A DNA stretch of 64,000 bases from assembly GCA_034520665.1 (NCBI GenBank), contig JAXHNJ010000002.1, forward strand, positions 544,660 to 608,659, written 5' to 3'. Both the position numbers and the translations under genes were made by a program. This DNA is from Patescibacteria group bacterium (GTDB lineage Bacteria; Patescibacteriota; Patescibacteriia; JAXHNJ01). Shown here in pieces: positions 2,407-24,170 of the stretch; the first letter of the stretch is position 1, and each line of letters opens with the position of its first letter. The notes under the pieces were generated by a model. The model searched no databases. It saw only the letters and a list, made by a program, of their open reading frames with translations, and had not been told where the DNA came from.

Positions 2407-5400
2407 ATGGAAACTTTGTTTTTAAAAACGTCTAAAAGATCACAAAGAAAAAAAGAGGGCCTTAATAGTAAAGGTCTATTAAGGTTTTTAAATTGTATAC
2501 CAGTATATTTTATGGAATTTTTTTGTGGGTTAAGATATTTACCGCATTTTATAAAATCTAAACCCTATTCTGGTTATCAAAAATTAACCGAACAGGATGA
2601 AAATGGCACTTATAAAATTCCTTATACCACTTATTTAAAATACAAAAAATACTCTCTATTCACAACCACTGTATTATTGGTTTTACTGGGTTTATTTTCT
2701 GGTTTATTTATTTTTACGATTACGCCAAATAAAATAGAAGCTGCTGGTGGTGATCCTCTACCTGGAGAATGTGAAGCACCATATTCTACTCAGTTATCCG
2801 AACCTAGTTCAAATTTAAATATTTGTGTTGGTGATACTTTTTTTATGAATGGAAAATGGTATGATAGTGAACCCACAAATGATCCTTGCAGCGCTAAACA
2901 ATTTAGTGCTTATGTTGATAGTGATATAATTGATACAAACACTTCATTAAGCACTACCTCAACATTTAGTGAATTGGTAGAAGAAAATGATGCTTTTGGT
3001 AAAACTGTAACTGCTGAAACAAAAGGCTCATATTCCATTAAATTTGCCATGGCTGAAGATGATTCTCCTAGTAAAACAATTACTGTTAGCGACTCTCCCT
3101 CTTATTCCCAATCTCTCTCTCACTCGGACAATTCTACTTCTTCTATCACCTGGTCCTGGTCAGATGATGAAGATGAAGATAATTACCGCGTTATGGACAC
3201 TGGAGACGCTAACCAGTCCGGAGACCTGGCCGCCGATACTACCTCTTGGCAAGAAACCTCTTTGTCAGCCAACACTCAATACACCCGCTACCTGCAATTA
3301 GTTAATGGCTGTGGCACTACTAATACGGCCAATTTAAGTACCTACACTTCTATTGAATCACCATCCGGTATTTCTTTTGATACAGTAGAAAAAAACACCA
3401 TCACGGTTTCTGGTGCCGGTACGCTTTCAAATTTAGCTTCTGACTCTTCCGGCATAAAATTTTCTGAAATAGTAACCAGTAGTGATTCCGGTTGGAAGCA
3501 AACCAATTCCTGGGAAAAAACTGGTCTCAGTGCTAACACCGAATACACCTTTGAGGCCCAGACCAGAAATGGCGATGGTGATGAAAACTCAAGTATTGCC
3601 GGAGAAAGTAAATATACTTTAGCGGCCGAGGCTAATATCTCTAGTGATCTGACCGAAGAGGCCTGGACTAATTCAACTAGCTTTACTTTTACTAACGAGG
3701 CTGGCTTTGGCTCGGGTGGTTTAGAATACTACCGTTATGTTTTTGACCAAAACGATTCCCATTCTTTTAATGACACCGAAACCCAGTGGTCCTCTGGCAC
3801 CAAAGAAGAAACTGATCCTTCGGAAGGTAATTGGTACATGCATGTTAAAGCCTATAACGCTGAAGACACAGCGGCTGCTTCTGGAGCTACTCAAACTCTC
3901 GGTCCCTTTAAGGTAGATATTACTGACCCAGCCATTACTAATAATGTTACTGGCGACACAGCCTGGCTTAATGCAGCGGGCACGGCTTATGATGTGGACT
4001 TTATGTCTAATGGCGGCTCTAACTTAGATTATGCTCAATACGCTGTCGGTACTACTCAAGGCGGCAGTGATGTTTTAGGCTGGACTAATATTTTTACCGA
4101 AGACACGGCTTCTTACACCAACTCTTGGCCGGTGGACTTTGACAGTTTAGCTGAAGGCACTAATTACGTTTCTTTTAGGACCTATGATCAGGCGGGAAAT
4201 GTGAAAGAAGAACTATCAAATGGTTTTCAAGTCAGAAAAGACACTATTGTGCCAGTGCCTGATGTGGAGACACCAGTTACTACTTCATCAGCAGCCATTA
4301 TTAGCTGGACTACTTCCGAGCCGACCACTACTCAACTAAATTGGGGCGCGGATGAAAATACTACAAATTCTACCACTGAAAGTGAGGAAAAATCCACTGA
4401 ACACACTGTTACCTTAGATAGCTTAAGTGATAATACTGAATATTTCTTTAAAGTAGCCGGACAGGATAAGGCTTCTAACCAAACACTTCATACGGCTGAG
4501 AGTTTTACTACCGCTGAACTAGAAGCCACTGTCATCACCAATGTTCAAGTCTCTGAAATTTCTCAGACCTCAGTTAAAGTCACTTGGACTACCAATCATG
4601 AAGCTGACTCCAAAGTGCGTTATGGTACTACCACTGCTTATGGTGATGAGGTTTATGATTCTGAAGAAGTAACCAGCCATGAAATGATCGTCACTGGTTT
4701 AACCGCTGGCACCACTTATCATTATGAGGTTTTAAGTGTCGGCAATACTTCAACCAATGACGCTGACGCTACTTTTATGACTGAAGAAGCGGAAGAACCA
4801 GCCGAAGAAGATGAAACTGAACAAGAGGAAGTTACTGAAGAAGCGGAAGAACCAGCCGAAGAAGAAACTACTCAAACTTATGTGGCTTCTCCGACAGTAG
4901 TCAAAAACGAAACTAACCCCATAGAAGAAGGAGTCACCATTAACGAAGTCAAACCAACTATTACTGGCCTGGCTCGTTCTAACAACACTATTTTCATTTT
5001 TATTGACGGCGAACTGGAGAATACGGTTCTTTCGACGGACGATCTTTCAGGAACCGGATCCTTTGCTTATAAATTAAGAAGAGTTTTACCTGAAGGTGAA
5101 CACACTTTATATACTATTTCTCGCGATCAGAGTGGTAATTATTCTGATGCTTCACCAGTTATTACCTTTAATGTTGACCATCCCTTTGTGGCGCCCACTC
5201 TTTACACCCCAGTTTTTACAGATGGCTCTAACCCCACGGTTATTGTTAACGGCGTAGCCAGAAATGATTCCTTGATTAAACTCTACATAGACGATGAATA
5301 CCAGGATCAATTTAACGTGACCAATAATCCGGACCATGAAAATACTTATTTCAGCTACCAATATCCCATTAGTAGTTTAGCCAGTGGCTCTCATACCATT

Positions 5401-16298: not shown

Positions 16299-16877
16299 TA
16301 AGCGTTGAAAACGTCTAATCGCTTCGCTTGTTGAAGGTGTTCAAGACGCCTTAATATTATTAGAGAATTTTTATCAATTCGTCACGGCTCGGAGCAAACG
16401 GAGCGGAAAAATTTCACTAAAACATTCACAAAGATCTTTCCTCTATAATAGTGGCGTAAAGAAAATAGACCGGACTAAAGTCCGTATGAAAATAATATTT
16501 TCTTTTTTCCTAGCCACTTTCCTGCCCGACAACGGCTTCGCCGTTAGGCGAAGACAGGCGGGAGTGGCGTACTCATGAAATAGAAAATAAGGTTATACCG
16601 ACGCCCCCCTTTTACCACTTCGTCCGATCATTAAAGAGTAGATGTCAGTCGCGACTGACATCTACGGATAGCAGGCCGCATGGAGAAATCCTGTTAAATT
16701 AACCATAAGGTTCTCTCCACTTGGGTCGAGAGGGGATAGTAATGGTTAAACCTTGTCGGCAAACTTTTTTTAGTAAAAGCTCCAAAGGAAAACTTCGCCC
16801 TAAATTATGAAAGGAAAATAGCTGGTTTGCCGTAGGCGCGGATAAAGGCTTGACCCCTTCTTTTCACAAAAGGCGAT

Positions 16878-16909
16878 GGCTTGACCCAGGCTAACTTTAG
16901 CGCTAGAGT
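16878..16909 (+). promoter_or_regulatory. Repeated promoter-like element, copy A: TTGACC-17-TAGAGT
   Basis: GGCTTGACCCAGGCTAACTTTAGCGCTAGAGT. The 28-nt core is near-identical to copy B at 17556-17587. It lies 30 nt upstream of the 16938 gene. Confidence 0.45.
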
Positions 16910-16937
16910 AAAAGAGAAATAATATTCTAAAAATATT

Positions 16938-17498
16938 ATGAATAGAGAAAGAGAAAAAGGAATTGATTTTGAAAAGCAACAAAGGCTTTTTGAAATAGAA
17001 AAAGAAGTGGCAGAGATGGAAGATAATCTGGGCAAAGAAATAGATCCGGGTATCCGCGAAACTTTGGTTTCTGTTAAAGCCCACGATTTACCGACTTCTC
17101 AGTCCTGCGAAGGCCATAATCATCGGGGCGAAGCTTTGCCCTGGATCCAGATAGAAAATCCAGCCCCGGCTGGTTGGGAGGAAGATGATAATAAAAAAGA
17201 GCTTTGGTGCCGGTGGAATAAAAGGGATGCCGATAAATTACAGATTTTATTAGATGAATGGTATGAGGAAAGAAATAAACAGGGGCAAGAAGTTCGAGAT
17301 AAACTAAAATTAGATTTAATGCCAATAAGCCAGTATCAAGCGGTCAGGCTAGAGCCAAAAGCCCAAGCTGAAATTTCCGGTAAAGGCAAAGTTACCAAAA
17401 AAATGAAAAAAGAAAGGGAAAAACAAGACCTTGAGCCTTATAAAAAAGAGATGAAGGATTTTGGGCAGTGGTTAAGAAATAAGTTTTTAGAAGAATAA
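16938..17498 (+). CDS. Hypothetical protein with elevated GC relative to its neighbours
   Basis: 186-aa ORF with no recognisable domain. Its codon usage is more GC-rich than the flanks. Confidence 0.55.
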   Translation: MNREREKGIDFEKQQRLFEIEKEVAEMEDNLGKEIDPGIRETLVSVKAHDLPTSQSCEGHNHRGEALPWIQIENPAPAGWEEDDNKKELWCRWNKRDADKLQILLDEWYEERNKQGQEVRDKLKLDLMPISQYQAVRLEPKAQAEISGKGKVTKKMKKEREKQDLEPYKKEMKDFGQWLRNKFLEE

Positions 17499-17555
17499 TA
17501 TTACACGGCTTTTTAAGGCGGTTTTTGTTTGCTTGCAAGCCGTAGCCTTGGCGAA

Positions 17556-17587
17556 GGCTTGACCCATGCTAACTTTAGCGCTAAACT
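17556..17587 (+). promoter_or_regulatory. Repeated promoter-like element, copy B: TTGACC-17-TAAACT
   Basis: GGCTTGACCCATGCTAACTTTAGCGCTAAACT, about 60 nt upstream of the 17645 gene. Confidence 0.45.
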
Positions 17588-17644
17588 AAAGGGGGTTTAT
17601 TTTTAGCTTTAAACTAAAAAATACTAATTATTAATTCTAATTAA

Positions 17645-17998
17645 ATGGCAATTTTCGACAAATTAAAATCAATAGGAAGTGTTTTAAAAGAGGCAAATAA
17701 AATTGAAGAGTATAAACAAATTATTGAAATTCAACAAGAGTTATTAAATCTTACACAAAAAAATGCGAGTCTAATTGATAAAAATAAAAACTTAAAAGAA
17801 AAACTAAAGCTTAAAGAAAAAATAGTATTTGAATACGACTCTTATTGGACAGTGGAAGAAGGAAGTAAAAAGGGCCCTTACTGTACTGCCTGCTGGGATA
17901 ATAAAAATAAATTAATCAGGTTACAAAGTTCTAAAACTGGATATCGTCGTTGCCCTATTTGTGACAATGTTTTTAATGTTGGTTTTCCAAATCGATAA
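17645..17998 (+). CDS. Hypothetical coiled-coil protein with a C-terminal CxxC...CxxC zinc ribbon
   Basis: CTACWDN...CPICDN motif pair at the C-terminus. Confidence 0.55.
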   Translation: MAIFDKLKSIGSVLKEANKIEEYKQIIEIQQELLNLTQKNASLIDKNKNLKEKLKLKEKIVFEYDSYWTVEEGSKKGPYCTACWDNKNKLIRLQSSKTGYRRCPICDNVFNVGFPNR

Positions 17999-18155
17999 AA
18001 TTAAATTAAAAATTACAATCATCTAGTAAAGCGAGAAAATAAATATGTCTTTAGAAAAAATATATAGTAATTTTATTTTTTATAATATACAGTAGCTTAA
18101 TAACTATTTTAAAAGTAATAAATGGTTAATTGAGTTATTAGCTTTAATTTATGTT

Positions 18156-18527
18156 GTGCAAACATTTTTTTATTCAGCAGATATTGAGAATTTTGATAAT
18201 AATATACTTTCAGCCTTAAAAATTATTTTTTGGATAATTATATTATTAATTTCTTTTTTATTATATATAAAATCCGAAATCTCTATTAGTAGAAAAGAGG
18301 ATAGTTTTAAGACCCCGTTATTGCGAGGGCCGATATTTGTTAAATATGTGTTAAGGGGAATATTTTTTATTATATTTTATACAACCTTAAAATTAGTATG
18401 GGCACAATTAAAAATTAATTATAATAATCATTTTTTAGTATTTTTATGGGTAACTCCAGGCTTTTTATTAATAATTGAGTTTGTAAAATATATTATAAGA
18501 GTAATTAAAAAATATATAAAAAAATAA
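18156..18527 (+). CDS. Small hypothetical membrane protein
   Basis: Two to three hydrophobic helices. Confidence 0.45.
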   Translation: MQTFFYSADIENFDNNILSALKIIFWIIILLISFLLYIKSEISISRKEDSFKTPLLRGPIFVKYVLRGIFFIIFYTTLKLVWAQLKINYNNHFLVFLWVTPGFLLIIEFVKYIIRVIKKYIKK

Positions 18528-18554
18528 AACCTTATCCAGAATTTTTAAAAACAT

Positions 18555-18776
18555 ATGAACCAAGAAGAATTTAGAAAAATTACTCAGGAATATGTAGAAT
18601 TTGAAAAAAAATATAGTGATTGGGTGAGAAATAATGTACCAACATCATGGAGTAATAGGGGTGTCAAAAAGGTAGTTCCAATAACAAAAGAAGTATTAGA
18701 TGAATGGACGAAAATGAAAAGCGTGTTAGAAGAAAAAGAAAAAAAGTTCCATGATGCTGCCTCTGAATTTATTTAA
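18555..18776 (+). CDS. Hypothetical small protein
   Basis: 73-aa ORF in a co-directional cluster. Confidence 0.4.
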   Translation: MNQEEFRKITQEYVEFEKKYSDWVRNNVPTSWSNRGVKKVVPITKEVLDEWTKMKSVLEEKEKKFHDAASEFI

Positions 18777-18908
18777 ACTAGATAAATAGTTTATTATTTA
18801 TATATAAACATGAATTTTTTTATGAGTTTATTTTTGTATTTATGTGAAAAAATATAACTAATTACTAATTATACTAAATATACTAAACTTATTAAGTACT
18901 AATTTTAT

Positions 18909-19715
18909 ATGAATATTGATTATAATGCTTTAAACGTGTATACAGATGGATCTTCTAAGGGTTCTCCACGGGTTGGAGGCATAGGCATTAGATTGGTCTT
19001 TCCTGAATCGTTAAGTAAATCAGATAATGTAAAAAATATTAATGTCCCCGGATATAAAAATGCAACTAATAATCAAATGGAGCTTCAAGCTTGTATTATT
19101 GCCTTAGAAAAAATAATGAAACTTGATGATCTAAAAAAAATTCAAAGAATTGTCATAAATACTGATTCAATGTATGTTGTGGGTAATTATAAAAAAGCTA
19201 TTTGGAATTGGAGTAGAAATAAATGGAAAAAAAGTTCTGGGGGGCCAGTTCTTAATGCGGAGTTGTGGAAACAATTAATTAGAAACATGAAAAAAATTGG
19301 TGTAAGAGTTGATATATATTATGTTAAGGGACACTCAAAAAGTAAACATAATAAAGAAGCAGACAAATTGGCAAAAAAATCAGCTAATAAATGTAGAAAC
19401 AAACAATTAAGTGTCGTTAATCTTAGAAGAAAATTATCTAATAAAAGTGTATTGTTGGGTAGTGTCAAAATGAGTGGACAGAAAATAAAAATAAGGATTA
19501 TTAGCAGTTCCTACTTAAAAACTCAAAGAATAAAAAAATATAAATATGAAGTAATATCAAAAAAAAGTAAATTTTATAAATGCGTTGATCAGATATATGG
19601 AGATAAAAATATTAAAACTCTTCGAGTTGGTCATAGCTACTTGGTAAGTTTAAATAAAAATAATATGTACCCACAAGTATCAAAAGTATTTTGTGATATT
19701 ACTGAAAAAAACTAA
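18909..19715 (+). CDS. RNase HI-family (RNase H-like) protein with a C-terminal extension of about 110 aa and unknown function
   Basis: YTDGS, MELQACIIAL, TDSMYV, KGHS and KEADKLAK follow the RNase HI DEDD active-site order. The C-terminal 110 aa have no match. Confidence 0.75.
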   Translation: MNIDYNALNVYTDGSSKGSPRVGGIGIRLVFPESLSKSDNVKNINVPGYKNATNNQMELQACIIALEKIMKLDDLKKIQRIVINTDSMYVVGNYKKAIWNWSRNKWKKSSGGPVLNAELWKQLIRNMKKIGVRVDIYYVKGHSKSKHNKEADKLAKKSANKCRNKQLSVVNLRRKLSNKSVLLGSVKMSGQKIKIRIISSSYLKTQRIKKYKYEVISKKSKFYKCVDQIYGDKNIKTLRVGHSYLVSLNKNNMYPQVSKVFCDITEKN

Positions 19716-19843
19716 AAAACTTTCTTTCCTAACTCCCCCATTTGACTAATAAAAAAATATATTATACATTTTATAACCAGCTCTTTTTGATATAGCTTTA
19801 TTAATCCATCCTTAACCCCACCCTTAACCTTGGAGGTGTTAAT

Positions 19844-20104
19844 TTGGGCAGGCATAAATCAGTTATAGAAAAAGGTAAGCAAACTCCCGGCCAAGCCGCT
19901 TCGGCCGCCAGAAAGCGACGCAATCAGGCCAGAAATAAAGCGGCTCTTGAAGAAGAAGCCGAAAGACGTGGGCTGACCGTCAGCGAACTTGTTCAGGAAA
20001 AAACCCTGGTCACAAAGAAAATGATTGAGGAAGCAAGGAACAGGGAATTGCAGGAGAGACTAAAAAGGGAAAAGCGCCGAGAATATTATTCTGGCTTGTA
20101 TTAA
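19844..20104 (+). CDS. Small basic hypothetical protein, GC-rich
   Basis: 86-aa ORF at about 50% GC in a 30% GC background. TTG start. A terminator follows. Confidence 0.45.
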   Translation: MGRHKSVIEKGKQTPGQAASAARKRRNQARNKAALEEEAERRGLTVSELVQEKTLVTKKMIEEARNRELQERLKREKRREYYSGLY

Positions 20105-20124
20105 TTTCATCCAAGAAAATCTAT

Positions 20125-20160
20125 AGCGGTTGTCCATCTGGACAATCGCTTTTTTATTTT
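20125..20160. terminator. Bidirectional rho-independent terminator
   Basis: AGCGGTTGTCCA-tct-GGACAATCGCT hairpin followed by TTTTTTATTTTT. Confidence 0.6.
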
Positions 20161-20178
20161 TCTAATTTTTTTTAAATT

Positions 20179-20523
20179 TTATGGTTTATCTTTTACTGGG
20201 AAGTGATTACTATTTTTTGAAATGGAATGGCTCGAAAGTTTTAGAATTTCATTAAAATTATCATTTTCGGCCGCTTTGTTTCGTTTCTCAAAGCCGCAGA
20301 GACTACAGCGATGGACAATAACGTATTCTCCGCTTTTAACCTTCACCCCGACTGGTTCCATCAATCCCTGACAACTTGCCTGGCGGTCACCAGGATTAAT
20401 ATCTACGTGTTTGCTCCAGAGACATTTTGGACAGTGATTGGTGTAACCGCTTCCCTGCACCAAAAATCCGCACCTTTCACAGGTAAAGTTTTCTTTAGTC
20501 CGTTGAAATTTCCGTGTTTTCAT
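20179..20523 (-). CDS. RNHCP-domain zinc-ribbon protein
   Basis: The TNHCPKC motif matches the RNHCP family signature. Further Cys pairs are CERCG and CSLCG. Confidence 0.7.
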   Translation of the reverse strand: MKTRKFQRTKENFTCERCGFLVQGSGYTNHCPKCLWSKHVDINPGDRQASCQGLMEPVGVKVKSGEYVIVHRCSLCGFEKRNKAAENDNFNEILKLSSHSISKNSNHFPVKDKP

Positions 20524-20857
20524 AATAGAATTTACCTCTTTTTTTACTTATCAAATATTTACTTCTGTCTTCTCTTTATCATAATCAGAAAATAAGAGCA
20601 AGGGGAAGGTAAAATAAATAATTAATTTATAAATTTTAAACCAATTTTAACTATTGTGATTTTTTTTTAATAAAAAAAGCCTGACTGAGGTGGTTGGGCT
20701 GGAAGTGAGGGAAGAAAAATACTTCGACTGATTAATTTTTTTATTTTCCCTTCAAGTCTCCTGATTAGAAGTTTTCCATAGTATTTGCTTGCATTTTTTA
20801 TTAAAATATGATAAAATTAGACTGGAATAAGCTTTAAAGGTATAATACAGTACAAAA

Positions 20858-21457
20858 ATGACCAAAAAACCAAGAAAAGGGGAATATTTAGAGATTTTAT
20901 TAAGGTCTCCTAAAACAGTTTTTTCTGTAAAAGAGGCCGCTTTATTATGGCAAGAAGAATGTGAACAAAGAGTTTCGTTGAGATTGAATAAATACACTAA
21001 AGCTGACAAATTAATCAGATTACGTCGTGGTTTCTATGCTAAAGACGAAAACTATGATCGTTTTGAATTAGCCACAAAAATATACACTCCTTCTTATATC
21101 AGCTTTGAGACTGTATTAACCCGAACAGGTATAAATTTTCAGAAATATGAAAGTATTTTTGTGGCCTCGTATGTTACTAGAAATATTGAAGTTGACGGGC
21201 AAAAAATATCTTATATCCGCATAAAGGATTATGTTTTATCGAATATAAAAGGCATAAAAAACCAAAATGGTGTATCTATAGCCACAAAAGAAAGAGCTTT
21301 TTTGGACCGAATTTATATCAGCCAGGAATATCATTTTGATAATTTAAATGTTTTGAACTGGGATAAAGTTTTTCATATTTTGCCAATTTACGGTAACAAA
21401 AAAATGGAAGAAAGGGTGAATAAATATTTCAAAAATTATACAAAATCAAACATATGA
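20858..21457 (+). CDS. AbiEi-like antitoxin / transcriptional regulator (type IV toxin-antitoxin)
   Basis: N-terminal wHTH-like region. It is paired with and overlaps the downstream AbiEii-like nucleotidyltransferase by 4 nt. Confidence 0.55.
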   Translation: MTKKPRKGEYLEILLRSPKTVFSVKEAALLWQEECEQRVSLRLNKYTKADKLIRLRRGFYAKDENYDRFELATKIYTPSYISFETVLTRTGINFQKYESIFVASYVTRNIEVDGQKISYIRIKDYVLSNIKGIKNQNGVSIATKERAFLDRIYISQEYHFDNLNVLNWDKVFHILPIYGNKKMEERVNKYFKNYTKSNI

Positions 21458-22149
21458 GCGTTGATTATGCTAAACATAAAAATATCTTATTGCAGATTCT
21501 AAAAGATATCTATACTGATGTTACTATTGCTTCACACCTGGGATTTAAAGGCGGAACTGCTGCTTACTTGTTTTATGGACTTGACCGGGATTCCTTTGAT
21601 TTAGATTTTGATTTACTGGATGAAAATAAAATAGAAATAATTTTTGAAAAAATTCATAAGATTATAAAAAACTACGGTAAAATCACTTATTCAAAAATAA
21701 AAAGATTTAATTTATTAAAAGTTATTTCATACGATGAAAAATTACAAAACATTAAAATTGAAATCAACCGCAGAAATTTTGGCTCCAGGTATGAATTAAA
21801 AACTCTATTGGGAATTTCCATGCTGGTTATGAAGAAGGAGGATATGTTTGCTCATAAATTAATGGCTATGCAAGAGCGAGTACATAAAACCAGTCGTGAT
21901 ATTTATGATGTCTGGTTTTTTCTAAAGAATAACTGGCCAATCAACCAAAAAATTGTGGAAAAGAGAGCAGAAACCTCCTATAAAGAGAGTTTGCAGAATT
22001 GTGTTAAACAAATAGAAAAAATAAAAAGCCGCGATTTATTGGTTGGCCTGGGCGAATCATTGTCTAAGTCTCAAAAAGACTGGGCTCGTGCTAAATTAAA
22101 ATCAGAAATTATTTTTTTACTAAAAGCCCGACTAAAAAGTGAAAAATAA
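21454..22149 (+). CDS. AbiEii/AbiGii-family nucleotidyltransferase toxin (DUF1814)
   Basis: FKGGTAAYLFYGLDRDSFDLDFDLL matches the family motif LKGGTAL...R.SEDIDF. Confidence 0.75.
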   Translation: MSVDYAKHKNILLQILKDIYTDVTIASHLGFKGGTAAYLFYGLDRDSFDLDFDLLDENKIEIIFEKIHKIIKNYGKITYSKIKRFNLLKVISYDEKLQNIKIEINRRNFGSRYELKTLLGISMLVMKKEDMFAHKLMAMQERVHKTSRDIYDVWFFLKNNWPINQKIVEKRAETSYKESLQNCVKQIEKIKSRDLLVGLGESLSKSQKDWARAKLKSEIIFLLKARLKSEK

Positions 22150-22407
22150 ATTAGGATGAGTACAAAATTAATAAACCCTTGAAAAGAGTATTATTTTAAG
22201 AAATAATATTTTTGTTCCCAAGCCGGTATATTTTAAGAAACAAATGTTGAGCCAGCTAGAAAATAAACAATAAAAAAGGAACTAATAACAAATTTTAAAA
22301 TATTGTGATTAATAAGCCCTGACCTTATCCCTGGGTTTTTTATTTTTACCAAAATAAAAAAGCCCTTTGATATTATCGCCGGGCTCGGGTTTTTAAATCA
22401 AGAGCTA

Positions 22408-22707
22408 TTAGGGGAGGAGAAGCCGGTACCATTCATCGCGAATGTTAGCTTCGATTTCTCCTTTCATTAGCTTGAAAAGAAAGGGAAGATCAGCTTTGAA
22501 AAAAACCTCACTCTCCCTGACTTCTATCCAGCCGCTGATATTTTTGCCTTTGGCCTGAAAGCTAAAAGAACAGGTATAGCCTTGCCAGTTTTCTGAAAGG
22601 TTTTTGATCAGATCCTGGTGTGCTTTGGCCATGGCAGAGAGCAGCAGCTTGGCTTTAGCCAAGACCTCGTCTTTAGTCAGAGAATATGGTAGATGAACTT
22701 CCATCAT
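22408..22707 (-). CDS. PHA_gran_rgn-like small protein (putative polyhydroxyalkanoic acid system protein family)
   Basis: MMEVHLPYSLTKDEVLAKAKLLLSAMAK...ADLPFLFKLMKGEIEANIRDEW follows the family pattern. RBS AAGGAGG. Its start overlaps the upstream gene's stop as TAATG. Confidence 0.5.
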   Translation of the reverse strand: MMEVHLPYSLTKDEVLAKAKLLLSAMAKAHQDLIKNLSENWQGYTCSFSFQAKGKNISGWIEVRESEVFFKADLPFLFKLMKGEIEANIRDEWYRLLLP

Positions 22708-23273
22708 TACCTCCTTTTTCTGATTCTGTAGGCGTCCAAAACAAAGAAAATTGAAGCTAATTGTTGAGCAAAAAGAATCGGATTCGTGCGGGCTAACATC
22801 AGTGCGGCACAGCAGCCGTTCATTAAGATAAACCAAAGGTAACCCTTGAAATTATCCTTAACTCCGAGCAGAAAAGTGCCGATGAGAAATCCCAAAGCCA
22901 GTCCGAGCTCCAAAATTTGCGTGTAGGAGCTTAAGCCTCTGAGTTTGTAGAAACTTAAGCCGATACCGATACTGGTAATAACTAGAGCGATCCAGTAGAA
23001 CCATTTGGGCGGTCTGCCTTTTCTTTTTATAGCTAGGATGAGACCGGTAGCCATAGAAAAAGCGCCAGCCATTTCAACAAAGGCAGCAATAATATCATTG
23101 CCCGTGTAGAGAATATAAACCCAAGCTGGCAGGCCAATTAGGTAAACCGTCCAGGAAAGGATTTTATTAATCCTTTTTTTCTCTTGGTTTTGGCTTCTTT
23201 CGGCTCGTGAAAAAAAGATCTTGTTAGCTAGATAAAAAGCTCCAGCCCAAAGTTTAATCGGAGAAGCAATCAT
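22707..23273 (-). CDS. Hypothetical membrane protein (about 5 TM) co-transcribed with the PHA_gran_rgn-like gene
   Basis: 188-aa hydrophobic ORF. Its stop overlaps the downstream start. Confidence 0.55.
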   Translation of the reverse strand: MIASPIKLWAGAFYLANKIFFSRAERSQNQEKKRINKILSWTVYLIGLPAWVYILYTGNDIIAAFVEMAGAFSMATGLILAIKRKGRPPKWFYWIALVITSIGIGLSFYKLRGLSSYTQILELGLALGFLIGTFLLGVKDNFKGYLWFILMNGCCAALMLARTNPILFAQQLASIFFVLDAYRIRKRR

Positions 23274-23688
23274 TATCTATCCTACTTTCGTTTTAAAAAA
23301 AGAGCTAACCAATTTTTAACTGAATAGCTTAACATGTTATTTTGGGTTTGTCAACTCCGCCTTTCGCGAAAGGCGGATAAAGCCTTTATTAAACTAATTG
23401 TCAGGTTGATGAGTCATGAGGCTTGCTAAGTGGCGTCTATAAATTCTATGATATTCTATCACTCTTCAAAGCTCAGGCTTAAGCCTTTGCCCCTCAGGGT
23501 GACAAGGCTTTGAAATTTGAAAATATATAAAAAACACCTCATTAAAAAAACGGAGTGTTTTTGTTTACAGGCCGTAATTTTGATGAAGGTGTGGTGAGCG
23601 CAGAAGAACTTGTCACCCTACGGGTGATCCGCCTCTGGCGGAAACCCCACTTACTTATTCTTTTTCTATAATCAAATAAATTATTGGT

Positions 23689-23765
23689 GGGCCGTGAGGG
23701 ATTCGAACCCCCGACACCCTGCTTAAGAGGCAGGTGCTCTAACCAGCTGAGCTAACGGCCCATAC
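23689..23765 (-). tRNA. tRNA-Lys (anticodon CTT) with encoded CCA
   Basis: Reverse complement is GGGCCGTTAGCTCAGCTGGTTAGAGCACCTGCCTCTTAAGCAGGGTGTCGGGGGTTCGAATCCCTCACGGCCCACCA. Confidence 0.8.
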
Positions 23766-23794
23766 AGATAATTAAGTCAATATATCGTTTAAAG

Positions 23795-24020
23795 TAAAAG
23801 GAGGAAAGGCGAAGCGGGCCGGTCTACCATTGTCCCTCTTCGGGGGGATCCGCCCTGTCTGCCACAGGCAGGCTCTGGCGGAAGCTATGTGCCCGCGTTT
23901 AAATTTATATTGAATTCCGGCTTTAGACCGAGATCTTCGATCCGTAGGATCGAGACTAACGGTCTATATTTTATTAATAGCCTTTACACGCCGGAACCCT
24001 GAGCAGCGTCGAAGGGTGGA
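23795..24020. ncRNA. Unassigned structured RNA candidate between two tRNAs (strand uncertain)
   Basis: GC-rich with nested stems, a CCCTC-UUCG-GGGGG tetraloop hairpin and GCGGGC...GCCCGC long-range pairing. It shares the 24-nt motif GCGARGCGGGCCGGTCTACCA with the tRNA-Ala locus at 886-910. No ORF. Confidence 0.35.
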
Positions 24021-24025
24021 GGCGT

Positions 24026-24100
24026 GGTGCCCTCGCTAGGATTCGAACCTAGAATTCCAGTTCCGAAGACTGGCGTGTTATCCATTACACTACAAGGGCT
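24026..24100 (-). tRNA. tRNA-Arg (anticodon TCG) with encoded CCA
   Basis: Reverse complement is GCCCTTGTAGTGTAATGGATAACACGCCAGTCTTCGGAACTGGAATTCTAGGTTCGAATCCTAGCGAGGGCACCA. Confidence 0.75.
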
Positions 24101-24170
24101 ATTAGTATTTTTTAAAAAACACGTGATAAAATTTTATCACGGCTTTTTATAAAAATCAAGTTTAAGCCTT

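Follow-up and report, generated by a model that had tools for sequence, protein, structure and literature searches.

Patescibacteria, the bacteria of the candidate phyla radiation (CPR), have very small genomes, in which few immune systems have been recognised. The region considered here belongs to the chromosome of one such bacterium, and lies within a stretch of 64,000 nucleotides (64 kb) that was analysed as a whole and is referred to below as the window. Between two conserved flanks, it carries a short segment of accessory genes, including a pair of AbiE toxin–antitoxin genes, and a gene for an RNase HI that continues into a second domain, here called RNase HI–OB. An earlier note on this DNA, made from its letters alone, had described an accessory island with the likeness of a defence island, and all of the open reading frames (ORFs) that it named are found in the ORF list at the coordinates it gave.

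A Hypervariable Segment between Conserved Flanks

The region from about 17,640 to 23,680 is a hypervariable accessory hotspot of roughly 6 kb in the Patescibacteria chromosome. Its borders are set by the following features:

16872-16912, plus strand: promoter-like element, copy 1 (TTGACC-17 nt-TAGAGT, a sigma-70-like match), 5' of the 186-aa gene
16938-17498, plus strand: lineage-specific gene of 186 aa, with no Pfam, NCBIfam, PADLOC or PHROG family
17550-17590, plus strand: promoter-like element, copy 2 (TTGACC-17 nt-TAAACT; promoter match at 17559-17587), marking the left end of the variable DNA
23685-23761, minus strand: tRNA-Lys(CTT), found by ARAGORN and Rfam
24025-24099, minus strand: tRNA-Arg(TCG), found by ARAGORN and Rfam

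Relatives were reached through homologues of the 186-aa protein. On the left, all of them share the order ClpP–RNase Y–YmdB–HU–186-aa gene, after which the cargo starts; on the right, the shared flank runs from the tRNA-Lys/tRNA-Arg pair through a cNMP-binding protein, a T2SSE ATPase, a 558-aa protein and PMT to YibE_F. The closest relative, locus L106, has flank proteins 88-98% identical to those of the window and DNA about 83% identical, and L103, L104 and L105 are farther relatives, with 62-85% protein identity. At the nucleotide level, L106 is similar up to about 17,636, just past promoter-like copy 2, and again from the tRNAs onwards. The tRNA pair forms the right border in L103 and L104 as well, and its orientation in L106 is opposite to that in the window and L103. 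A scan of metagenomes with YmdB for the same synteny returned mostly distant phyla; L023-L025 alone were useful, yet too short or distant.

Although both flanks are kept (62-98% protein identity), the cargo in L106 and in L103/L104 is unrelated to that of the window. From the 186-aa gene to the tRNAs it consists of:

Window: proteins of 117, 123 and 73 aa; the RNase H; an 86-aa protein; an RNHCP protein; AbiEi/AbiEii; a 99-aa PHA_gran_rgn-like protein; a 188-aa 7TM protein
L106: a 180-aa transmembrane protein; a 277-aa weakly HATPase_c-like protein; a 131-aa weakly STAS-like protein; proteins of 84 and 78 aa
L103: a NUMOD3 protein; a 184-aa protein; a Peptidase_C39 protein

The block is thus variably present, as the earlier note had supposed it might be, and not universally conserved. 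The extent that the note had assigned to it (16,938-22,149) needs revision at both ends. The tRNAs do close it on the right, but only about 1.5 kb beyond the proposed end, and on the left it starts no earlier than about 17,640. The 186-aa gene, counted as cargo in that note, is a conserved core gene, whose orthologues (68-72% identity) stand directly after HU in L103, L104, L105 and L106; since it is kept at the same position in relatives, it belongs to the backbone. The structured non-coding region, taken for the left boundary, lies to the left of this core gene and so does not bound the island.

The two promoter-like copies form a 41-nt direct repeat with 90% identity, and both are also present in L106 (~1489-1560 and 2192-2232). 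In the two genomes, one copy stands exactly at the cargo start, so that a conserved promoter copy precedes cargo genes that differ. The repeated element may in addition be a substrate for recombination.

The composition of the segment is uneven. With a window GC content of 34% and a core flank of 37-39%, the block of the 117-, 123- and 73-aa genes and the RNase H has 21-30%, the 86-aa and RNHCP genes 41-47%, the AbiE genes 30%, and the 99- and 188-aa genes 42-44%. The only cargo common to the window and L106 is the 86-aa basic protein, 70% identical to an 84-aa ORF at L106 4300-4554, within an islet of nucleotide similarity inside the variable segment (window 19736-20158 to L106 4188-4608). 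Because blocks of low and high GC alternate and one islet is shared, the cargo appears to be a mosaic of several separate acquisitions. The arrangement is not a mis-assembly, since an independent Logan assembly (SRR26473340, locus L001) contains the identical 7-kb gene order.

Position beside two tRNA genes, atypical GC and the match of the 117-aa protein to a PHROG family would suit a decayed prophage or integrative island inserted as a whole at tRNA-Lys/tRNA-Arg. Such an origin is very improbable. The segment has no capsid, terminase or replication genes, and no integrase-like ORF was found between 16.9 and 24.2 kb in the ORF list or by family scans. A repeat search of the segment gave no att-like repeat and no tRNA-derived direct repeat, such as one of the tRNA 3' end. 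Pattern scans of the viral contigs of IMG/VR for three cargo proteins, through the C-terminal domain of the RNase H, RNHCP and the 117-aa protein, were empty, and the cargo is a mosaic of differing GC blocks rather than a single block. A hotspot that swaps its cargo among close relatives shows where Patescibacteria keep conflict genes, and provides a template for finding more of them.

An RNase HI Fused to a Predicted OB-Fold Domain

18909-19715, plus strand: RNase HI–OB fusion, 268 aa (PF00075, E 1e-31, residues 7-159, followed by an extension of about 105 aa)

The RNase H with a C-terminal extension was correctly recognised in the earlier note, and the extension belongs to no family. The protein is laid out as an E. 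coli-type RNase HI domain (residues 7-159), a basic linker (~166-190) with a conserved VRRK motif that reads LRRK in the window copy, and a barrel of the OB type (~191-263). The gene has a GC content of 27.6%, against 37-39% in the neighbouring core.

The N-terminal domain scores 110 bits with PF00075 (cut-off 25.8), and a profile search of PDB agrees independently, matching it to structures of E. coli RNase HI at E of about 1e-29. The catalytic residues D13, E58, D86, H142 and D152 align with D10, E48, D70, H124 and D134 of E. coli, leaving the active site intact, and the identity to E. coli RNase HI is 34% over the whole domain. A model made with AlphaFold2 and searched with Foldseek resembles E. 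coli RNase HI with a TM score of about 0.8, and the Trp/Lys-rich basic protrusion (handle) is conserved. With NF001236, the NCBIfam equivalog of housekeeping rnhA, the protein reaches 114.5 bits, under the curated cut-off of 160.

Across 31 aligned sequences, conservation is as high in the C-terminal part as in the catalytic one, and R173, K175, Q191, L203, Y213, E214 and D227 are invariant. The AlphaFold2 prediction has a predicted local distance difference test (pLDDT) of 90 and a predicted TM score (pTM) of 0.86 for the full protein, and a pLDDT of 87.6 for the C-terminal domain alone. For this domain, the models confidently predict a five-stranded closed beta-barrel, an OB fold. By sequence, it matches nothing: none of 24 C-terminal domain sequences hit a Pfam family above noise, OB families included, and a PDB sequence search gave no match covering it. 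The fold search yielded no solved structure in which both domains are joined, and a viral fold library gave weak LEF-3-like matches only.

The closest known counterparts of the domain are OB folds of the type found in single-strand-binding proteins (RecO N-domain, LEF-3, RPA, PriB, SSB and MCM N-domain), with which it has 4-18% sequence identity. Unlike these, it falls in no Pfam OB family and appears to occur solely as a fusion to this RNase H. From its fold neighbours and the conserved R173, K175, R196, Y211, K212 and Y213, we infer that it would bind single-stranded DNA or RNA.

Two known designs can be compared with the fusion. With E. coli RNase HI (RnhA, type 1) it has in common the D-E-D-H-D active-site residues and the basic protrusion that grips RNA:DNA hybrids. 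It differs by the conserved basic linker and the C-terminal OB domain of about 100 aa, and in being accessory, rare and horizontally spread, whereas RnhA is a core gene. Eukaryotic RNase H1 and the RNase HI of Bacillus halodurans and Thermotoga carry an N-terminal hybrid-binding domain, a linker and the RNase HI catalytic domain, so that the common design is a catalytic domain, a linker and, as a distinct unit, a nucleic-acid-binding domain by which the choice of substrate or the processivity is adjusted. In RNase HI–OB, however, the accessory domain is C-terminal, and it is an OB fold, with single-strand binders as nearest structural matches, not the small alpha/beta binder of duplex hybrids. 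The annotation “ribonuclease HI” conceals this second domain, and is now corrected.

Distribution of the RNase HI–OB Family

A database search returned 684 homologues of RNase HI–OB, and the best 120 of them are nearly all of about 260 aa, with full coverage and 48-62% identity; the exceptions among these 120 are one fragment of 163 aa, 100% identical, and one protein of 229 aa. With a profile of the OB domain, 301 hits were obtained among 1.84 billion representative proteins, 210 of them below 1e-10. The domain occupies residues ~165-265 of an RNase H of 260-290 aa in nearly every full-length hit, and the shorter hits look like gene fragments. Since the profile hits are nearly all of this architecture, the OB domain appears to exist only in the fusion. 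A few variants bear a further C-terminal domain: by eye, that of P0217 resembles a GNAT acetyltransferase, and P0261 and P0272 end in a tail like a winged helix. Such modularity of added domains is typical of conflict systems.

The family is thinly and broadly spread. When one genome for each of 185,579 species was scanned with a sequence pattern, 16 loci in at least nine phyla were found, a lower bound because the pattern is strict. They span Planctomycetota, Chloroflexota, Acidobacteriota, Desulfobacterota, Ignavibacteria, Actinobacteria, Beta- and Gammaproteobacteria, and one Candidatus Staskawiczbacteria. The window copy groups, in a tree built by neighbour joining, with Planctomycetota-type copies (52-60% identity), and the identity to the other CPR copy is 45%; the tree disagrees with taxonomy. 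No full-length member was found in 50,697 phage records or 72,556 plasmids by tblastn, which gave catalytic-domain matches only, at no more than 39% identity, nor in IMG/VR. The gene is also absent from the syntenic site in three relatives. Rarity, patchiness, the tree, the lack of phage and plasmid copies and this syntenic absence together indicate an accessory, horizontally transferred chromosomal gene.

The same results bear on the reading in which RNase HI–OB is the housekeeping RNase HI of a reduced genome, with the OB domain replacing SSB-mediated recruitment and the position in a variable region being incidental. E. coli RNase HI is stimulated and recruited by SSB, CPR genomes are minimal, and the protein has a full E. 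coli-type catalytic domain with its basic protrusion. Some members also lie among housekeeping genes, the L007 copy adjoining acetolactate synthase/KARI and the L116 copy lying near dnaA/dnaN. We nevertheless regard this reading as rather unlikely in view of the absence from the syntenic site of relatives, the great rarity of the family, a tree incongruent with taxonomy and a GC content well below that of the core. The hosts of the family further include Proteobacteria and Acidobacteriota, groups in which a canonical rnhA is normally present.

Genomic Neighbourhoods of the Family

Many genes near RNase HI–OB homologues belong to systems of defence or to mobile elements:

L002: AAA_15/AAA_21 ATPase, GIY-YIG
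L005: McrBC, type I restriction–modification (RM), integrase
L011 and L017: type I restriction subunits
L012: type IIG enzyme (RM)
L015: Ppl
L019: D5/PriCT primase
L022: AbiE
L107: CBASS cyclase with Cap15 effector, Shedu, PIN, serine recombinase
L109: Fic, ParB-methylase, helicase, excisionase-like helix-turn-helix protein
L116: TIR protein
Locus unassigned: Gabija, with two members each of GajA and GajB among the family neighbours

Other mobile-element neighbours are ArdC, HTH_17 and IS66. At E <= 1e-5, 113 neighbours of RNase HI–OB matched 455 PADLOC models, against 44 matched by 113 neighbours of the housekeeping gene ymdB, where the matches were mostly to generic kinase or ATPase models. 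Matches to “mad3/mad8/AriA” among the neighbours were set aside as non-specific, as they occur in the housekeeping control too.

Across about 24 distinct RNase HI–OB loci, no homology between neighbours was detected in all-against-all comparisons (blastp E 1e-5, phmmer E 0.05), and the gene is often bracketed by genes of the opposite strand. RNase HI–OB is therefore a self-contained unit. A gene of 320-376 aa that adjoins it in several loci was considered as a conserved partner, and was rejected because these genes have no mutual homology by blastp or phmmer.

The mobile-element genes raise the question of whether RNase HI–OB is cargo that serves integrative elements, in primer or R-loop processing or in counter-defence against retron msDNA precursors, reverse-transcriptase-based defences or the R-loops of RNA-guided interference. 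Integrases and recombinases, ArdC, the D5/PriCT primase, ParB-methyltransferase, HTH_17 and IS66 near family members suit this idea, as does the frequency of RNase H domains in phages (phrog_531 at 1.8e-38; 1374 phage records matching the catalytic domain). However, the searches of phage records, plasmids and IMG/VR gave no full-length member, and the window segment has no integrase, replication gene or att repeat. The neighbours themselves do not separate the two readings, because defence systems commonly ride such elements. Service to a mobile element is accordingly an unlikely role, and we return below to defence.

Three immediate neighbours of RNase HI–OB, at L110 6944-7942, L109 6775-7905 and L008 7470-8489, are mutually unrelated and conflict-gene-like. 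The L110 protein has, by eye and unconfirmed, the look of a dCTP-deaminase-type domain, with a transmembrane segment at its C-terminus, and the protein of L109 that of a CoiA-like nuclease. At L008, the protein weakly matches the C-terminal part of PADLOC RT-Protease_XI models, and a trypsin-like protease is an unconfirmed reading of that region.

A Possible Role in Immunity

Taken together, the region is probably best explained as a hypervariable hotspot with mosaic cargo, in which a complete AbiE pair and RNase HI–OB, as a self-contained conflict or immunity gene, stand among small ORFs that are otherwise unlinked. A narrower proposal for RNase HI–OB is tentative: it is possible, short of likely, that the gene is a previously unrecognised stand-alone immunity gene acting on R-loops or primed replication intermediates of invaders. 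It is the gene neighbours alone that suggest a role in defence.

In this proposal, the OB domain and the basic linker would hold a single strand beside an RNA:DNA hybrid, either the strand that an R-loop displaces or the template next to an RNA primer. This binding would target or tether the RNase HI domain and direct cleavage of the RNA strand. Such a design has parallels in the RNase H1 enzymes with their own hybrid-binding domain and in the way SSB recruits E. coli RNase HI. With the RNA removed, invading phages or plasmids would lose the R-loops or primers on which their replication depends, and RNase HI–OB would act in immunity or conflict by attacking nucleic acid directly, rather than as a housekeeping rnhA.

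We know of no described defence system built on an RNA:DNA-hybrid-specific RNase HI. The proposed gene would share with single-gene nuclease defences (Ppl, Shedu/SduA, type IIG RM) a stand-alone gene, a nuclease with a nucleic-acid-binding domain, a patchy distribution and a defence-island setting. It would differ from them in its nuclease, an RNA:DNA-hybrid-specific RNase HI, in having no PADLOC v2 model, and in a role proposed from its gene neighbours.

Several points weigh against this interpretation. The link to defence is one of association; RNase HI–OB matched no model in PADLOC-DB v2.0.0 (E <= 0.1), and literature searches found no paper describing the fusion. The count of PADLOC families among neighbours is crude, and its control loci are mutually related. 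Four family members (L007, L010, L020 and L117) are flanked by housekeeping or signalling genes. As the analysis of this genome covered 64 kb of a 698-kb contig, the gene could still be the cell's only RNase HI and a housekeeping one. The hotspot itself is defined by three relatives with intact flanks, none closer than about 83% nucleotide identity, and the turnover of its cargo is unexplained by any integrase or att repeat in the segment.

If the proposal is true, RNase HI–OB would be the first defence system on a bona fide RNA:DNA-hybrid-specific RNase HI, and one that spreads horizontally among phyla as far apart as Patescibacteria, Planctomycetota, Chloroflexota and Proteobacteria. A protective effect would represent a new principle in bacterial immunity, the attack on replication RNA:DNA hybrids rather than on DNA or RNA alone. 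If the protein is not protective, the family would still be an uncharacterised coupling of RNase H to single-strand recognition, bearing on R-loop biology and possibly of use as a tool. Being compact (~265 aa) and strongly conserved, the family is easily testable.

The AbiE Pair

20858-21457, plus strand: AbiEi antitoxin and transcriptional autorepressor, 199 aa (PADLOC PDLC02255, E 2.9e-55, residues 9-192)
21454-22149, plus strand: AbiEii DUF1814 nucleotidyltransferase toxin, 231 aa (PF08843, E 5.4e-17; PADLOC PDLC02324, E 3.3e-71)

The overlapping AbiEi/AbiEii pair read from the DNA in the earlier note is borne out by these PADLOC matches (rounded, 3e-55 and 3e-71). The antitoxin gene comes first, on the same strand, and the two genes share a 4-nt ATGA overlap behind a candidate abiE promoter at 20818-20846. 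AbiEi has weaker matches to NCBIfam TAA_AbiEi (4e-5, under the cut-off) and Pfam AbiEi_4 (0.094), and AbiEii scores 63 bits with PF08843 (cut-off 22.5) and resembles the DUF1814 structures PDB 4o8s and 4ok0 (E 4.5e-7).

The motifs of AbiEii have been defined as hG[GS]x9-15DhD with an Arg for I-II, KLxAaxxR-like for III, and +DxxD for IV (Dy et al. 2014, PMC3985639). In the window protein, motifs I-II are found at residues 32-53 (K32GG...R45...D49LD51), motif III at 135-142 (KLMAMQER) and motif IV at 148-152 (RDIYD). In common with the type IV AbiE systems described in that paper are the bicistronic overlapping operon, a full-length COG5340-type AbiEi and DUF1814 motifs I-IV. The differences are that motifs I and II stand slightly closer together than they do in the S. 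agalactiae protein, and that the host is a Patescibacteria genome, where the pair is known from its sequence. With every sequence hallmark of AbiE present, the genes are a complete canonical pair and, by homology, would act as an autoregulated type IV toxin–antitoxin and abortive-infection module. AbiEi would repress the operon and neutralise AbiEii; AbiEii would be a GTP-binding DUF1814 nucleotidyltransferase that causes growth arrest when released, for example on phage infection.

AbiE is the one recognised defence system in the window segment, and the cargo of relatives gives weak matches only (HATPase/STAS-like, and DrmA at 2e-9). The likeness to a defence island drawn in the earlier note is partly upheld: AbiE is a recognised defence or toxin–antitoxin system and the RNase H family recurs in defence islands, but the multi-gene module that the note had also envisaged did not hold up, as described next.

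Other Cargo Genes

17645-17998, plus strand: 117-aa coiled-coil and zinc-ribbon protein (heptad-rich N-terminal half; cysteines 80, 83, 103 and 106 as CxxC...CxxC; GC 28%)
18156-18527, plus strand: 123-aa small membrane protein, an ORFan (three hydrophobic segments, peaks starting at 17, 60 and 92)
18555-18776, plus strand: 73-aa ORFan, with no family and absent from all fetched loci
19844-20104, plus strand: 86-aa Lys/Arg-rich protein with a TTG start (23 K+R; GC 47%; no family)
20125-20150, no strand assigned: terminator-like GC-rich hairpin (11-bp stem with 6 GC pairs, T-run; T/A runs on both sides)
20179-20523, minus strand: RNHCP-domain double zinc-ribbon protein, 114 aa (PF12647, E 1.4e-31, 108.7 bits, cut-off 24, residues 11-93)
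22408-22707, minus strand: 99-aa PHA_gran_rgn-like protein (precomputed Pfam PF09650; GC 44%)
22707-23273, minus strand: 188-aa multi-pass membrane protein, 7TMR-DISM_7TM-like (PF07695, E 5e-7)

Several descriptions in the earlier note agree with these data: the coiled-coil zinc-ribbon and 123-aa membrane proteins, the basic protein rich in GC relative to the window, and the RNHCP protein convergent with it. The six co-directional genes said to precede the RNase H are in fact four; to reach six, the RNase H and the basic protein must themselves be counted.

The 117-aa protein matches phrog_1244, a family of unknown function (E 1.9e-6), and has only four homologues in 5.8 billion clusters. One of them, P0135, lies in a RhuM/Fic-RadC-MTase-DUF6996/6997 region, which has none of the genes that surround the 117-aa gene in the window, homologues of the 123-aa and 73-aa proteins included. 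The 123-aa gene has the lowest GC content in the window (20.7%), and its protein has no family and is absent from the relatives' loci. The RNHCP protein has cysteines at 15, 18, 31, 34, 51, 73 and 76, and its signature reads TNHCP; it gave no PADLOC or PHROG match and is absent from L103 and L106, and a literature search on the domain found nothing on function. The 99- and 188-aa genes overlap by one base and form a small operon within the variable segment (GC 42-44%), with no counterpart in L103 or L106.

The hairpin at 20125-20150 sits between the convergent 86-aa and RNHCP genes. No terminator-like site lies between 17.6 and 20.12 kb, so that the genes from the 117-aa to the 86-aa protein may be co-transcribed. 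Five genes on one strand with short gaps, a single promoter-like element at 17559-17587, no terminator-like site before 20125-20150 and low GC in all of the first four invite the idea of one defence operon (117, 123 and 73 aa, RNase HI–OB, 86 aa), in which a membrane protein, a zinc-ribbon sensor and a nuclease would act together. We judge this highly unlikely. No two of the five genes co-occur in any other locus, the roughly 24 RNase HI–OB loci have unrelated neighbours that are often on the opposite strand, the homologue of the 117-aa gene is found in another context, and the 86-aa gene is present in L106 without the other four. In a PADLOC scan, the 117-, 123-, 73- and 86-aa and RNHCP proteins had no match at E <= 0.1, with AbiEi and AbiEii alone matching. 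The suggestion that the genes upstream of the RNase H are an unrecognised multi-gene defence module is thus not sustained, the 186-aa gene being core, the 117-aa gene having its four homologues in another setting, and RNase HI–OB having no conserved neighbour. We favour RNase HI–OB as a self-contained gene, and the 117-, 123-, 73- and 86-aa, RNHCP, 99- and 188-aa genes are unlinked accessory genes that form no demonstrable module.

In the hotspot of L106, an adjacent pair (2864-3697 and 3707-4102) encodes the 277-aa weakly HATPase_c-like and 131-aa weakly STAS-like proteins. The former also matches the N-terminal part of the DrmA model (2e-9), and the pair may be a further uncharacterised conflict module.

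Non-Coding DNA near the Borders

Between HU and the 186-aa gene lie about 570 nt of GC-rich, hairpin-dense non-coding DNA (16299-16871). In relatives, this gap measures 200-300 nt, and the structured DNA is absent. Its predicted RNA fold is more stable than that of shuffled sequences (minimum free energy -160 kcal/mol, z -3.4), and Rfam gave no match on 16299-16871. A small mobile structured element is one possibility, a non-coding RNA of no known family another. A perfect hairpin (16640-16663) lies within a 34-nt stretch (16633-16666) that recurs, inverted and 94% identical, at L106 5371-5404, adjoining the tRNAs.

At the right border, the tRNA pair was compared over 23274-24170 of the window, 5508-5680 of L106 and 12631-12833 of L103, and the Rfam matches in the region were the tRNAs only. 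The spacer between the two tRNA genes is 263 nt in the window, against 26-52 nt in relatives, and the additional sequence is rich in GC and contains hairpins. The motif CTCTGGCGGAA lies downstream of both tRNAs, Lys and Arg, and a form of it with one mismatch is found about 130 nt downstream of the tRNA-Arg at 1759-1830. In the window there are 6 matches, against 0.44 expected.

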